Source: a bacterium BMS3Abin11
Lineage (GTDB): Bacteria; Pseudomonadota; Gammaproteobacteria; BMS3Bbin11
Reading direction: 5' to 3'
Assembly: GCA_002897635.1 (NCBI GenBank)
Contig: BDTD01000007.1
Coordinates: 16,907 to 80,906 of the forward strand
Length of the DNA stretch: 64,000 nt
This document shows positions 56,097-64,000 of the stretch, one piece after another. The notes under the pieces were generated by a model, which saw only the letters and a program-made list of their open reading frames with translations, searched no databases and had not been told where the DNA came from. Numbering within the stretch: position 1 is the first letter of the stretch; each line of letters starts with the position of its first letter. The position numbers were made by a program, and so were the translations under genes.

Positions 56097-56243
56097 ACCA
56101 CAGAGGACACGGAGGACACAGAGGTTTTTTATTATTGTGTACCCGTTGCTTCGTTAAATTTGGTGTCAGACGAGGACTTCGATGGTTGTTTATTACTTCT
56201 AGAAGATTTTCCTTTCCTCTGTGTCCTCTGTGTCCTCTGTGGT
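56097..56243. repeat. Family-2 BIME-like element in the radC / coaBC divergent intergenic region
   Basis: ACCACAGAGGACACGGAGGACACAGAGG at 56097-56124 and CCTCTGTGTCCTCTGTGTCCTCTGTGGT at about 56216-56243, bracketing 90 bp. Flanking leader and trailer motifs (GTCAAAAG..., ...TTTAGATTTTGATC) are shared with the copy at 38035-38230. Confidence 0.85.
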
Positions 56244-59420: not shown

Positions 59421-60728
59421 ATGCCAAAAGCCCATTTTCGTAAAACACGGCGTCAGCTAACTTCTCGCCGGGTGTGGCGGACGCGTCTGGTTTTCTGGTC
59501 GGGTGCTGTGCTGGTCGGCCTGGCAGCCACAGCACTTGCCATCAGCAGCGACCGTGCAGGACAGGCTTTCTCACGTATTCTTGAAACGAGCCCCTATATC
59601 CCAATAGTTCTGACACCCTTAGGGCTGGTACTGATCACATGGTTAACCCGAAGCTTTGTCCCGTCTGCCGAGGGCAGCGGCATCCCGCAGGTAATTGCCG
59701 CCCTGCAGATAAAGCACGACTCAGATAGAAGAGATATTTTGTCACTGCGCATGGCGTTCAGCAAAGGCTTACTCGTCATACTTGGTATTATTTCCGGTGC
59801 ATCCATCGGTCGTGAGGGGCCAACGGTTCATATCGCCGCAGCTATTACCTATGCCATGTCGCGTATTGCTCGCTTTCCTCTGCATGATATCGGCAGAGGT
59901 CTGATTGTTGCCGGCGCTGCCGCCGGTCTGGCAGCCGCTTTCAATACACCTCTGGCCGGTATTGTTTTCGTAATCGAAGAAATCCGCCGCAGCTATGAGA
60001 AAAATACCAGCGGTACCATACTCACTGCTGTCATCATTGCAGGAATGACGGCTTTGACTATACAGGGCGATTACCAGTATTTTGGTACAGTAACCACCAG
60101 TCTTGAACTCTCACAGATGCTTGGCGTAGTCATTACCACTGGTGTTATCGGTGGCCTGGCAGGAGGTCTTTTCGGCGCCCTGCTATTAGTTGGCACACGC
60201 AAACTGACAAACTTCCGCAATAGCCGCCCCTACGCTCTGGCACTGCTGTGCGGCTTATCATTAGCGGGTCTTGGCCTGGCATCCGGCGGCCTGACCTATG
60301 GCACGGGCTATGCTGAAGCCCAGAACCTGGTTAGCGGAGGGGAAAGCAACGGCTTCTCCTATGCCCTGATGAAACTCTCAGCCACCATCATATCCTACTG
60401 GAGCGGTATACCCGGCGGTATATTTTCCCCCTCCCTGTCTGTCGGTGCCGGTATCGGAGCCGGTATTGCAGAATGGTTCCCAACAGTTCCTTCTGCTGCC
60501 GTTATACTTCTTGGTATGGTGGCCTACTTCACTGGTGTCGTACAAACGCCAATTACCGCCGTAGTCATCATCATGGAAATGACAGCGGAGCAAAGCTTAT
60601 TGCTGCCCCTGATGGCCACCGCATTGATTGCCGAAGGCATCTCAAAACTCATCAATCCAAAATCCATCTATCGCCAGCTGGCTATGGATTTCATGAAAGA
60701 CGTGCATAAGAAGAAGCATGGTAAATGA
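59421..60728 (+). CDS. ClC-family voltage-gated chloride channel / H+-Cl- antiporter
   Basis: GREGP selectivity motif, GIPGGIFSP, multi-TM. Confidence 0.85.
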   Translation: MPKAHFRKTRRQLTSRRVWRTRLVFWSGAVLVGLAATALAISSDRAGQAFSRILETSPYIPIVLTPLGLVLITWLTRSFVPSAEGSGIPQVIAALQIKHDSDRRDILSLRMAFSKGLLVILGIISGASIGREGPTVHIAAAITYAMSRIARFPLHDIGRGLIVAGAAAGLAAAFNTPLAGIVFVIEEIRRSYEKNTSGTILTAVIIAGMTALTIQGDYQYFGTVTTSLELSQMLGVVITTGVIGGLAGGLFGALLLVGTRKLTNFRNSRPYALALLCGLSLAGLGLASGGLTYGTGYAEAQNLVSGGESNGFSYALMKLSATIISYWSGIPGGIFSPSLSVGAGIGAGIAEWFPTVPSAAVILLGMVAYFTGVVQTPITAVVIIMEMTAEQSLLLPLMATALIAEGISKLINPKSIYRQLAMDFMKDVHKKKHGK

Positions 60729-60789
60729 CGATGTTTTACGTATTATGTGTTACGAATTACGTAAAACCTGAATCGTAATATGTAAAACG

Positions 60790-61155
60790 TTATTTCCCCA
60801 TAGCCTCAGGTGGTACCCCCACCAATTTGGCCTCTGGGATCCGTGACTTAACATAAGTACTCAATTCCAGCACCAGCCCTGGTTTGTGTTTGATAGATAC
60901 CCATAGAAGATTTAAAGGAACATTCAGATCAACAAAAACGACTTCCTTGTATTGACTGAGTATCTCGGCGAGGATGTCGACTTTACAGCGCAGAATAGAT
61001 TCAGCCTGATCACGCAGCCCGGGAAACAACATCATAAAATCTCCCAGTGCGTTGCCCTCGCCATCATGTGTCGGTACACGTTCATGCAACGGCTCATTAG
61101 GCAACAGTTCAAGCGAACATTTTAAATTTGTACTATTTTTCTTCTCAGGTAGCAT
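60790..61155 (-). CDS. Hypothetical protein (121 aa); third gene of the cyclase operon
   Basis: ORF 14 bp downstream of cyclase subunit B on the same strand. No recognizable domain. Confidence 0.35.
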   Translation of the reverse strand: MLPEKKNSTNLKCSLELLPNEPLHERVPTHDGEGNALGDFMMLFPGLRDQAESILRCKVDILAEILSQYKEVVFVDLNVPLNLLWVSIKHKPGLVLELSTYVKSRIPEAKLVGVPPEAMGK

Positions 61156-61169
61156 AGCTCACAGATCAA

Positions 61170-62219
61170 CTAATATTCATCAAGTTTAGTCCCTGTATTC
61201 TCTGATGCAAGTGGAGGATTTGACATTTGTAGTTTCTCCAAATCCTGCAAAACATGATCTGACAGACTATCCTGTAAATGAAAGATGCTGGAACCATCCT
61301 GTTCGACTCTGCCGGATGCCAGGATAAGTCCTGCAGGTAAACTACTAAGAATGTATTCTATATTTACATTTCCTGAAACCTGACGCAGCTTTACCAGTAG
61401 TTTTGTTGTAGCAGAGGATCGATCACTCACCAAAACAAGATCAAATACATCATGGATACCAGAGAGTCGAGATCTGACAGCCATTTCTATACCCTCAAGA
61501 TGAACAACGCTTTCATTATCCTGAGCCTGGTTTACAAATGCTGGAACATATAGATTGATAACATCCCGAGCCTGTGTAGAAGAAACCATGTTCTGCGTCC
61601 AGATAAAGGCAGCGATCAATCCCGTCAGAATTACCAGGAGAATATACCTTGCACTTCTTTGCTGCCTGTATCTATTCAAGCTTGCGAAGAACTGGCGCCT
61701 CATTTCCCGCCCCCTGCTACGACTAGCCTGGCCATCAGGCAGGTAGGCATACAATGGCATTCGAATATCGAAATTCTTTAGATCATAAGTACCTAAAGCA
61801 ACTAATCTCTGTCTTTCACTGGCCTTTAGATGCTGAAAGACCGTTCGAGACAGGCATATTCCACCTGCCCGTGCGCAATATGGCAGGCGTGAAGCCAGGT
61901 TCACATCCGCGCCCTGTAACCTGCCCTGTCGAAATAGCACTTCTCCAGTATGCAGGCCGATTCTTAGAATAAACTGAGACAGAATCTGTTGCAAAGAAAT
62001 TGCAGCATTGAACGCCAGCGTGGCGTCGGGAAAATAAGCGTATAATTCACCTATCCTGATCTCCAGCAACTTACCATGAAAACGCTTCAAATGATCACGC
62101 AGAAACCCCTGATGCTCTTCTAGTCGACATGAGACTACAGGTATCTCTCTTTCATTCTCTGCCGTCTCGGTAACCTGGACAAACATAATGGTTACAACAC
62201 TGCAATGCGTTTCAGGCAT
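61170..62219 (-). CDS. Membrane-anchored class III nucleotidyl cyclase-like protein, subunit B: degenerate metal-binding Asp residues, intact Asn/Arg transition-state motif
   Basis: Cyclase homology domain with LRIGLHTGEVL and GADVNLASRL (Asn and Arg present). The first metal Asp is replaced (IMFVQV) and the second position is GE. One TM segment (ILLVILTGLIAAFIW), then a roughly 140 aa C-terminal domain of unknown function. Confidence 0.6.
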   Translation of the reverse strand: MPETHCSVVTIMFVQVTETAENEREIPVVSCRLEEHQGFLRDHLKRFHGKLLEIRIGELYAYFPDATLAFNAAISLQQILSQFILRIGLHTGEVLFRQGRLQGADVNLASRLPYCARAGGICLSRTVFQHLKASERQRLVALGTYDLKNFDIRMPLYAYLPDGQASRSRGREMRRQFFASLNRYRQQRSARYILLVILTGLIAAFIWTQNMVSSTQARDVINLYVPAFVNQAQDNESVVHLEGIEMAVRSRLSGIHDVFDLVLVSDRSSATTKLLVKLRQVSGNVNIEYILSSLPAGLILASGRVEQDGSSIFHLQDSLSDHVLQDLEKLQMSNPPLASENTGTKLDEY

Positions 62220-62348
62220 AGGATTTCCTTATCCTCTGTAAGATGGTTAACAGGTTGCGAATGAGACAAAATACATCAGAACCACATTTTACCCAAATAA
62301 ATTAAAATGAATATTATGAGAAAACGGGCTTAATAGAGGGATCCAAAA

Positions 62349-63419
62349 TCAGGAACCTAGCCACGCAAGAATGTTTTCAGTAATCTGTCTTTCCATTTCT
62401 GCAAGGTTATTTATACTACCAGTAACCACACCACCGGATGCCTGCACCTTCCCGTTCTGCTCAAAAATTCCCCATGTCAGTCTTACATGCTCTGCATTTT
62501 GCTGGAAACTGAAAACAAGCCTGAAGGCAGAACTACTGCCATACTTTTTGTCAGCATTTGTGTCGGGTTTTGATGCACCCTTAACAGGAAGAAGATTTAC
62601 ACCAGCTATCGAATTTACGCTCGTTTGTATTCGCCTGGCCATGTCGCTGAGTTCTTTGCCGAATCCACCACTGGAAAAATCCCTGATCTCAGTAACTTCA
62701 ATATACCGAGTCTCAATTTCAGGCTTACTACTTGCGAACATTAAAAACAGTATTGTGGCTACCACCAACAATGGAATTTCAACAACAGGAGATATAATAG
62801 TTACATTTAAGTTGTCCAGATATTCGGTCTTCAGATACTCAAGTAAAAATCCCTGACGCCTGAGGAAAGCCTGTTTCTCTTCATATAGATAAAATACTGG
62901 CACTGTATCGGATAAAAAGCCCAGATCATGCCTGCCCAGTGGATAGGCATATACTGGAAAGTCCGGAGTAATTTCATCAATAATGGTTTTGCTGACGCAT
63001 AGCCCATCTGCACGACCTAAAGATTGAAGACAGGTAGCAGCTGCCAGTGAAAGCTGTTGCTGGCTTTCTTTTTCTCCCTGTTTACTGGAGGAGTGAATAC
63101 CGATTCGCGCAGTTATGCCTGGTTCTTCGGATGAAAGATTCCATGCATTGAGGGCTTCCTGTATGGCAAAACCAGCCTTTACTGCAGATTTGCAGGTTCT
63201 GAAGCTTGCTGAAATCGCATCACCGGTAAATTCAATCCCAAAACCAACTGCTTTTTCGATGATGGGTACCAGTATGGACTGGAAGGTTTCATAAAGATCA
63301 ACCCCTTTACGCTGATCTTTCTGCATGATCAGCGAAGAGCCGACTATATCAGCTACCATATAGGTTAAGGGCATCTCTATTAGTTCTGGATAGTTCAGGT
63401 TTGATTCAAAAGTTGTCAT
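62349..63419 (-). CDS. Membrane-anchored class III nucleotidyl cyclase-like protein, subunit A: metal-binding Asp pair present, Asn/Arg motif absent
   Basis: VADIVGSSLI (first metal Asp), EFTGDAISASF (second metal Asp) and ARIGIHSS. The region homologous to GxxVNxASRL reads GLCVSKTII, so Asn and Arg are lost. One TM segment and a C-terminal domain paralogous to subunit B. The first 20 codons of the track ORF derive from repeat copy I; the likely true start is the Met at 63359 (MVADIVGSS...). Confidence 0.6.
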   Translation of the reverse strand: MTTFESNLNYPELIEMPLTYMVADIVGSSLIMQKDQRKGVDLYETFQSILVPIIEKAVGFGIEFTGDAISASFRTCKSAVKAGFAIQEALNAWNLSSEEPGITARIGIHSSSKQGEKESQQQLSLAAATCLQSLGRADGLCVSKTIIDEITPDFPVYAYPLGRHDLGFLSDTVPVFYLYEEKQAFLRRQGFLLEYLKTEYLDNLNVTIISPVVEIPLLVVATILFLMFASSKPEIETRYIEVTEIRDFSSGGFGKELSDMARRIQTSVNSIAGVNLLPVKGASKPDTNADKKYGSSSAFRLVFSFQQNAEHVRLTWGIFEQNGKVQASGGVVTGSINNLAEMERQITENILAWLGS

Positions 63420-63528
63420 ATCAAGGCAAGGATCGCACGTAATAGCTAGTTATTGCGAAGATTCTTAACGCAGAGATGGCAGCTTTTGGATTGAACATGA
63501 GTATTCATGAATTAATAGAGGTGCCCTT
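63366..63528. repeat. Family-1 MITE-like element, subfamily a (copy I), 163 bp; the best-preserved copy, fills the parC-cyclase spacer
   Basis: AAGGGCATCTCTATTAGTTCTGGATAG ... CATATCAAGGCAAGGATCGCACGTAATAGCTAGTTATTGCGAAGATTCTTAACGCAGAGATGG ... CATGAATTAATAGAGGTGCCCTT. Confidence 0.9.
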
Positions 63529-63541
63529 GAGGGCGCAGTTG

Positions 63542-64000
63542 TCATTTCCTTTCAATGATAATTTTATCCACCAACCGGTAACCTTTCGGTAGCAATCGTC
63601 CACGTTGTGCACGGGCACCCCAATAGTCATCCATCTCAGCAGACTTCAGGCGACGGTATCGCTTGCCAGCATAGACCAGTAGTTTCTGACCATTCTTGAA
63701 TACCATCGCAGCTGCCAGTTTTTCTTCACCCGTCTCAAATTTCTTTGTCGGAATGTTAATCAGCTTAACGCCTTTACCGCGTGCCATAACCGGTAAGTCT
63801 TCGATGCTGTATACCAGTAAATGCCCTGTTGAACCCGCCAGGGCTAGCCAGTCGTTCACGATATCGCCAACTTGTACCGGCTGCAATATATCGGCACCCT
63901 TTGTCAGTTTAAGCACCACCTTGCCCTTACGGTTTTTACTTTGTAGGTCACCGAGACGCGTGACAAAACCATAGCCTGCGCTGGTAGAAAGCAGGAAATA
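63542..64000 (-). CDS. parC: Type IIA topoisomerase A-subunit C-terminal beta-pinwheel domain, probably ParC (topoisomerase IV subunit A). The 3' end of the gene is in the window; the 5' end runs past the window edge.
   Basis: GKGVKLI...blade-like repeats. The short C-terminal tail after the last blade fits ParC better than GyrA. Confidence 0.5.
   Translation of the reverse strand, partial: YFLLSTSAGYGFVTRLGDLQSKNRKGKVVLKLTKGADILQPVQVGDIVNDWLALAGSTGHLLVYSIEDLPVMARGKGVKLINIPTKKFETGEEKLAAAMVFKNGQKLLVYAGKRYRRLKSAEMDDYWGARAQRGRLLPKGYRLVDKIIIERK

Follow-up and report, generated by a model that had tools for sequence, protein, structure and literature searches.

Class III nucleotidyl cyclase domains pair head-to-tail, and in the mammalian adenylyl cyclases (domains C1 and C2) and soluble guanylyl cyclase (subunits alpha and beta) the partners are paralogous domains with complementary sets of catalytic residues, which together give one active and one degenerate, pseudo-symmetric site. 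In bacteria, class III cyclases are stated to homodimerise with two equivalent sites, the asymmetric pseudo-heterodimer being stated to be a eukaryotic arrangement that arose via gene duplication and fusion (PMC9552081). In the open-access literature we found no described natural two-gene complementary class III cyclase pair in bacteria, although a precedent may exist; the R. centenum proteins GcyB and GcyC, annotated there as hypothetical, have been referred to as non-catalytic subunits. Here we analyse two adjacent genes, A and B, in a 64,000-nucleotide stretch of the gammaproteobacterium BMS3Abin11 (contig BDTD01000007.1; hereafter the window), whose products we lean, on balance, towards regarding as the two subunits of a single class III nucleotidyl cyclase of receptor type, located in the inner membrane. 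To judge from the distribution of their residues, the pair would most simply be read as a heterodimer of A and B that is obligate and has a single composite site. An earlier note on this DNA had put forward such a heterodimer: the open reading frames (ORFs) and all the motifs that it quoted are present as it gave them, and the reciprocal degeneration of the two subunits on which it was built is kept across all the sequences that we aligned (22 A-family and 28 B-family).

Like C1/C2 and the alpha/beta subunits, A and B are paralogous class III domains with complementary residue sets, and on the heterodimer reading they would likewise form one active and one degenerate, pseudo-symmetric site. 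They differ from C1/C2 in being encoded by separate bacterial genes, 129 nt apart, and each protein has a single transmembrane (TM) segment, as the earlier note had said, together with a periplasmic domain of its own, in place of the one-polypeptide, 2x6TM architecture. Their sequences place the pair among the short-arm bacterial cyclases, in the subgroup closest to 3mr7, Ma1120 and LipJ. The mycobacterial class IIIc enzymes Ma1120 and Rv1900c/LipJ (4wp9, 1ybt), which are among the closest solved relatives after 3mr7, differ from A and B in being soluble or differently fused homodimers, in which every chain has the full metal ligands and the Arg. The Rv1900c homodimer is reportedly asymmetric in structure. 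Ma1120 naturally has Ala at the position of the transition-state Asn, as A does; it is an active cyclase despite this Ala, and the A164N substitution impairs it (PMC4215837).

Closer in cellular setting are AdvA of Acinetobacter baumannii and PA4961 of Pseudomonas aeruginosa, membrane cyclase-like proteins of cell division that affect fluoroquinolone susceptibility, and for which no dimerisation arm, 2/8 active-site residues and no activity were found (PMC13060281). As described there, they share with A and B a membrane anchor, a cytoplasmic domain resembling the cyclase homology domain and an origin in Gammaproteobacteria (PMC13060281). By these described features, A and B fall outside the AdvA/PA4961 type: the topology is opposite, with the TM and periplasmic parts of AdvA/PA4961 being N-terminal and the cyclase-like domain C-terminal, and A and B retain complementary catalytic residues. 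Going by its locus tag, PA4961 presumably lies a few genes from parC (PA4964), a position that echoes the parC-adjacent place of A and B.

Partition of the catalytic residues between A and B

Similarity to class III cyclases is found for B directly and for A through its family profile. B passes the Pfam Guanylate_cyc model (PF00211) with 25.4 bits against a cut-off of 21.9, over the C-terminal half of the domain, and a Pfam scan of A gave no match. When family profiles were compared with solved structures, the A family matched 3mr7 (E=8.5e-10) and Ma1120 (E=1e-6), and the B family matched 3mr7 better than the A family did (E=3.7e-15). In NCBIfam, the LipJ cyclase domain was the sole match, far below its cut-off. 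Compared with each other by BLASTP, A and B share 23% identity (E=6e-7) over ~150 residues, in their cyclase domains only; they are distant paralogues.

Homologues were collected as 25 clusters for A and 32 for B, a further four B matches being ordinary multidomain cyclases; all come from metagenomes or metagenome-assembled genomes (MAGs), and several lie on shared contigs. Catalytic positions were placed through profile alignments to 3mr7, Ma1120 and LipJ, with which the A-B BLAST alignment agrees, and were tabulated for 22 A-family sequences (down to about 41% identity) and 28 B-family sequences. Both metal-binding aspartates are present in all 22 A sequences (D24, 63348-63350; D67, 63219-63221), as is the GSS of the phosphate loop (22/22), whereas B has Gln15 at the first Asp position (28/28) and Gly57 at the second (28/28), followed by an invariant Glu58. 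Conversely, B has Asn107 (61899-61901), Arg111 (61887-61889) and the gamma-phosphate Lys148 in 28/28 sequences, where A has Ala, Val or Leu at the Asn position (Asn in 0/22; Ala126 in the window), Cys, Ser or Arg at the Arg position (Arg in 9/22; Cys130 in the window) and Gly or Cys at the Lys position (Lys in 0/22; Gly167 in the window). The two positions that specify the base are also non-canonical: the Lys-specificity position is Glu63 in 22/22 A sequences and Glu or Asp at residue 53 of B (Glu53 in the window), while the Asp-specificity position is variable in A and is Lys or Arg at residue 100 of B (Arg100 in the window). In a divergent lineage (L003 6048-7073; L004 3812-4837), B carries N107S and Q15R, the partner A retains its Arg, and the canonical Asn is found in neither subunit.

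By structure-based profile alignment, neither A nor B alone therefore has the full set of Asp, Asp, Asn, Arg and Lys, and the set is complete only when the two chains are combined. The division follows the C1/C2 type, with the metal ligands on one chain and the Asn, Arg and base residues on the other, L003/L004 being the exception. This complementary loss pattern is not due to chance. Two details of the residue assignments made previously have to be revised. In A, both metal aspartates were correctly identified, but the equivalents of the Asn and Arg lie in LSLAAATCLQ (Ala126 and Cys130), GLCVSKTII being the next strand; in B, the loss of the first Asp and the intact Asn and Arg stand, but the second Asp position is Gly57, and the Glu taken for its replacement is the next residue. 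The ratio of non-synonymous to synonymous substitution (dN/dS) in unsaturated comparisons was 0.26-0.31 for A and 0.23-0.30 for B, and by these values both genes are under purifying selection. The reciprocal degeneration itself is ancient and has been kept by that selection.

If the cytoplasmic N-terminal cyclase domains of A and B pair head-to-tail, A would contribute to the composite site the two metal-binding aspartates and the phosphate-binding GSS loop, and B would contribute the Asn, the Arg, the gamma-phosphate Lys and the base-recognition positions Glu53 and Lys/Arg100. The second site, made of B Gln15, Gly57 and Glu58 together with A Ala126, Cys130 and Gly167, would be catalytically dead; its B side is invariant, and by analogy with the forskolin site of animal cyclases it may have a structural or regulatory role. 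Of the two possible homodimers, B:B would be inactive because the metal ligands are absent, and A:A would be crippled in the window lineage because it is without the Arg and Lys. Since Glu53 and Lys/Arg100 reverse the Lys/Asp pair of adenylyl cyclases, the site would be expected to take GTP, or a nucleotide whose base has the same arrangement of donors and acceptors, and the residues suggest a preference for such a substrate over ATP; the earlier remark that the base-specifying residues are not canonical is thus borne out. In Ma1120, the K101E substitution lowered adenylyl cyclase activity by 92% and raised guanylyl cyclase activity about fourfold at pH 7.5 (PMC4215837).

Long-form relatives and the periplasmic domains

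A search of 1.84 billion representatives with the A profile, in which the matches listed were then classified by their catalytic residues, gave 9,595 proteins at E<=1e-3. Among the matches listed, A-like short forms without the Asn and Lys make up only six 50%-identity clusters. The next-best matches are proteins of 600-760 aa that align over the cyclase domain, the TM segment and a TolB_N-like domain, and 133 of the 148 nearest relatives newly listed among the A-profile matches have a complete catalytic set. In the closest of the long forms (P0186-P0196 and similar), the Lys-specificity position is occupied by Glu, or in rare cases by Asp or Gln, and the residue at the Asp-specificity position varies, while remoter matches have the canonical Lys and Asp; the clade of long forms closest to A may not be adenylyl cyclases.

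These cyclase-TM-TolB_N-like-TPR receptor cyclases resemble A and B in having an N-terminal cyclase domain, one TM segment and a periplasmic TolB_N-like domain, and resemble A in matching the profile over its full length and, in the nearest members, in the Glu at the Lys-specificity position. They differ in having a periplasmic TPR region: no TPR was matched by Pfam in A or B, and both chains end after the TolB_N-like domain. The order of cyclase before TM, which had been thought unusual, is thus the usual one in a large and uncharacterised family of receptor cyclases, of which A and B appear to be TPR-less, catalytically split members.

A two-gene version of the long form was found at two loci of a sister lineage, L010 and L015, where three genes lie between parC and the small ORF that follows B in the window: p1, a predicted lipoprotein gene and p2. 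The p1 protein (733-736 aa) consists of a cyclase plus TPR, and p2 (728-747 aa) is a second paralogue, 31% identical to p1 over the full length (E=6e-80). The full Asp/Asp/Asn/Arg/Lys set is present in p1, whereas p2 is without both aspartates and retains the Asn, Arg and Lys, like B. The best match of A is p1 (E about 1e-30) and that of B is p2 (E=4e-48 to p2 of L015), a pattern in which A appears orthologous to p1 and B to p2. It follows from these best matches that the duplication would be older than the split between short and long forms; a recent duplication with random substitutions, which the earlier note had held out as what would speak against the heterodimer, is not what we find, and the residue pattern is conserved. 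A and B thus appear to derive from a pair of the longer, cyclase-TM-TolB_N-TPR form, with p2 as its one degenerate member. Since p1 is complete and p2 lacks the aspartates, the asymmetry would have deepened stepwise, the short-form A having lost the Asn, the Lys and often the Arg that p1 keeps, and it would have arisen independently of C1/C2, from this bacterial p1/p2 pair. The protein encoded between p1 and p2 (136-140 aa; L010 4256-4678, L015 2317-2727) has a signal-peptide- and lipobox-like N-terminus (LLVGLGLSAC in L010). Pfam assigns it no family, and the 129 nt spacer between A and B in the window holds no counterpart of this small lipoprotein gene.

The hydrophobic stretch of each protein was placed at residues 208-226 in A and 190-208 in B. 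In B, six Lys or Arg residues lie in the 20 residues preceding the TM segment and one lies after it, and because of this positive-inside bias the cyclase domain is predicted to be cytoplasmic. No HAMP or other transducer domain was found between the cyclase domain and the membrane in A or B. Each chain's C-terminal domain would lie in the periplasm, with a TolB-N-terminal-like fold that is predicted for A from a model and for B from homology. An AlphaFold model of the A domain (20-sequence alignment; pLDDT 76.6) gave structure matches to HpaA (11.2), the TolB N-terminal domain (11.0), a flagellar basal-body protein of the LPHT ring (9.8), the CadC periplasmic domain (9.3), PelC (9.0), CsgG (8.9) and LpoB (8.2). 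The fold search that had been proposed for this domain therefore points to a TolB N-terminal-like module, and, as modelled, the domain belongs to a common periplasmic alpha/beta type of envelope-associated proteins. The probable role of such domains would be to detect or bind some component of the envelope and to adjust the activity of the catalytic dimer.

The C-terminal domains had been described as paralogous and of roughly 140 aa. They measure about 115-135 aa (aligned stretches of 125 and 137 aa), and their direct similarity is slight: BLAST found none between A and B, and hhalign gave a marginal result (E=0.007, probability 5.5%). The A domain aligns with that of p1 (E=5e-13) and the B domain with that of p2 (E=5e-12). 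Because A resembles p1, B resembles p2, and p1 and p2 align throughout, the two periplasmic domains can be taken as homologous, so that the paralogy stands by way of the p1/p2 bridge.

Layout of the locus and its neighbourhood

The features of the locus are collected in Table 1. B and the downstream 121 aa ORF are separated by 14 nt, and a ClC channel gene on the plus strand converges on the cluster. Over A and B, G+C is 0.42-0.45, versus about 0.50 around them.

Table 1. Features of the A/B locus, in positions of the window.
Feature	Position	Strand	Basis
parC-like (topoisomerase IV subunit A) gene, 3' end, directly upstream of A	63542..64000	-	
Gene A, 356 aa, candidate C1-like metal-binding subunit	62349..63419	-	ORF call, homologues
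A cyclase homology domain, about residues 18-185	62865..63368	-	profile alignment
A single TM segment, about residues 208-230	62730..62798	-	hydrophobicity
A periplasmic C-terminal domain, about residues 238-356, predicted TolB N-terminal-like alpha/beta fold	62352..62708	-	model
Gene B, 349 aa, candidate C2-like subunit	61170..62219	-	ORF call, Pfam, homologues
B cyclase homology domain, about residues 5-165	61725..62207	-	Pfam, profile alignment
B single TM segment, residues 190-208	61596..61652	-	hydrophobicity
B periplasmic C-terminal domain, about residues 220-330	61230..61562	-	profile homology to A domain by way of p1/p2
121 aa ORF, neighbour of B	60790..61155	-	ORF call

Where A starts is uncertain: conserved N-termini in the relatives P0001 and P0010 speak for M1 at 63419, and many other relatives begin nearer to the VADIVG motif than M1 of the window A does. 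In the window, the spacer to parC (63420-63541) is 122 nt, and the N-terminus of A is 20 residues longer, a feature common to P0001 and P0010. Most relatives have the A start codon overlapping or directly adjoining the stop of parC (L001 2678-2681, L016 2159-2162, L005 1679), an arrangement that suggests translational coupling with topoisomerase IV. A scan of 60600-63700 for promoters and terminators gave counts that differ by no more than about one standard deviation from those expected after shuffling, and the gene strand carries no terminator-like site. Among ten proteins of 217-259 aa elsewhere in the window, Pfam identified no CRP-type receptor for a cyclic nucleotide.

All recovered loci have the order parE, parC, A, B and small ORF on one strand, with the convergent ClC channel gene, phosphomannomutase, dut and coaBC, and then radC, rpmB and rpmG. 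A and B are adjacent wherever both are visible, including in the most divergent A-like clusters. The synteny is identical in all recovered loci, and no independent genomic context for the pair was found among them. The pair belongs to a narrow set of uncultured Gammaproteobacteria: a relative of A is present in only 5 of about 186,000 species genomes, and the MAGs of origin are labelled Gammaproteobacteria bacterium, Arenicellales or Pseudomonadota. Identity across loci is 39-92% for A and B and 80-96% for the parC tail, phosphomannomutase and the small ORF. Taken together, these comparisons point to a vertically inherited, fast-evolving, lineage-specific chromosomal locus that is no mobile or defence island.

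Genomes that have no cyclase pair carry unrelated envelope genes, in opposite orientation, in the slot from parC to the small ORF (L012 2719-4701 and L011 5664-6754, both minus strand). Among their products are a FimV_N protein and a thioredoxin-TPR protein, and the others are Slp and a lipoprotein of the 17 kDa-antigen type. The slot is a variable region within a block that is conserved in other respects. A further feature of the neighbourhood lies between radC and coaBC, where two perfect or near-perfect tandem arrays of three 9-nt units (56099-56124 and 56215-56241) are found. The arrays, CACAGAGGA and its reverse complement TCCTCTGTG, form a 26-27 nt inverted repeat around about 90 nt, which looks like a small element of the miniature inverted-repeat transposable element (MITE) or repetitive extragenic palindromic (REP) kind, and the short ORFs HRGHRGH and PLCPLCPLW found at the arrays are artefacts of the repeat.

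The protein encoded by the 121 aa ORF belongs to a widespread and highly conserved family of 112-128 aa proteins (L011 7001-7351, L012 7001-7339, L013 8001-8342, L014 8001-8351) with the invariant motifs PL.ERVP.RD, DFM.L.PGLR and EVVF.DLNVPLNLLWVS. Searches of Pfam, NCBIfam and PADLOC assigned it to no family, and no solved structure is related to it by sequence. A fold search with its model did return ferredoxin-like structures, but these matches are generic only.

Weighing the alternatives

What favours a split heterodimeric cyclase is a residue pattern that stays invariant in 22 A and 28 B sequences diverging to about 40% identity. Several observations weigh against it. The L003/L004 lineage has N107S in B, and 9/22 A sequences keep the Arg. 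The loss of Asn from A, on which the earlier note had relied, is real, but it is weaker evidence than was assumed: since Ma1120 is active with Ala, this loss alone would not disable an A:A dimer. A and B also evolve much faster than their neighbours, as relaxed pseudoenzymes would too, and the fact that they lie side by side cannot count separately as a sign of coupling, since a single synteny has been inherited by all loci. AdvA, finally, is a recent precedent for a membrane-anchored cyclase-like protein without activity (PMC13060281).

The same observations could be accommodated if A and B were both non-catalytic pseudo-cyclases, forming a membrane scaffold or receptor pair whose domains serve protein contacts or nucleotide binding, with a role perhaps in the envelope, in division or in chromosome segregation, given the position after parE-parC. 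Each protein alone is short of part of the catalytic set, A has no Pfam cyclase match, the pair diverges far faster than its flanking genes, L003/L004 is without the Asn in both subunits, and most relatives have A starting on or right next to the parC stop; the precedent of AdvA and PA4961, with their division role and link to fluoroquinolones, points the same way (PMC13060281). We nevertheless regard this as unlikely, as the invariance of D24, D67, N107, R111 and K148 is hard to explain without catalysis or the binding of nucleotide or metal. The arm of A and B, judged by eye from the profile alignments, is also equal in length to that of 3mr7, and no non-cyclase chain in the solved-structure library gave a significant E-value with the A or B profile. 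Alternatively, A might be a self-sufficient homodimer of low activity, and B an inhibitory or regulatory paralogue that titrates it into half-active heterodimers. The activity of Ma1120 with Ala and the Arg retained in some A sequences are both compatible with this, and since p1 is competent and p2 alone degenerate, the ancestor would have been an active enzyme with a degenerate partner. Set against it are the Cys at the Arg position in A of the window lineage and the Gly or Cys at the gamma-phosphate Lys in every A, together with the invariant Asn, Arg and Lys in 28 B sequences, which would be needless in a pure inhibitor because such residues matter only opposite a metal-binding partner; we consider it quite improbable.

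Two further readings would place A and B in a larger module, and both were rejected. The earlier note had suggested that A, B and the 121 aa protein might make up a dedicated three-gene signalling module. The 14 nt gap, the shared strand and the presence of the small ORF downstream of B in all A/B loci fit this suggestion, and the triad is conserved to that extent. The small ORF, however, also occurs without cyclases: it lies at the same syntenic spot in L011 and L012, where unrelated genes separate it from parC, and after clpS-clpA in L013 and L014. Its family, with 191 clusters, is wider than A/B, and its identity across the loci is 83-94%, against 39-92% for A and B. On this genomic context the 121 aa ORF appears to be a neighbour and no dedicated partner of A/B, and a three-gene module is very improbable. 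Even less can be said for a Pycsar-type anti-phage cyclase system or other mobile defence module, a reading that we hold to be close to impossible. Matches to the PADLOC PycC model exist, but they are weak and partial (A, E=1.2e-4 over residues 15-92; B, E=0.039). A Pycsar system lies in variable or defence-related surroundings and combines a PycC cyclase with a neighbouring effector, whereas here no effector gene is adjacent, and the locus is fixed between parC and the housekeeping block in all relatives; although local G+C is somewhat lower, inheritance is vertical.

Returning to the two-subunit cyclase that we favour, its fullest version would be a C1/C2-like obligate heterodimer that evolved stepwise and independently as two genes, with one active and one regulatory degenerate site, yielding cGMP or another non-cAMP product in response to an envelope cue received through two TolB-N-like domains, and co-transcribed with topoisomerase IV. 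With all these parts taken together, this version is offered only tentatively, and we think it rather doubtful. The enzyme fold, its chemistry and the logic of C1/C2 are known already; what would be new here are the split between separate genes, the bacterial setting, the intermediate in a sister lineage, the paired TolB_N-like domains and the non-canonical base-recognition residues.

If the heterodimer reading is true, asymmetry in class III cyclases can be seen evolving independently, with p1/p2 as a living intermediate in which one partner is degenerate, and the same division of labour as in the eukaryotic pseudo-heterodimer would have been reached without fusion. The pair would then offer a simple two-protein system in which to probe the purpose of the degenerate site. 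More widely, the analysis draws attention to a periplasmic sensor module that is uncharacterised and is carried by hundreds of cyclases, TolB_N-like and in some cases followed by TPR, as well as to a clade whose base-recognition residues lie outside the adenylyl cyclase rule.

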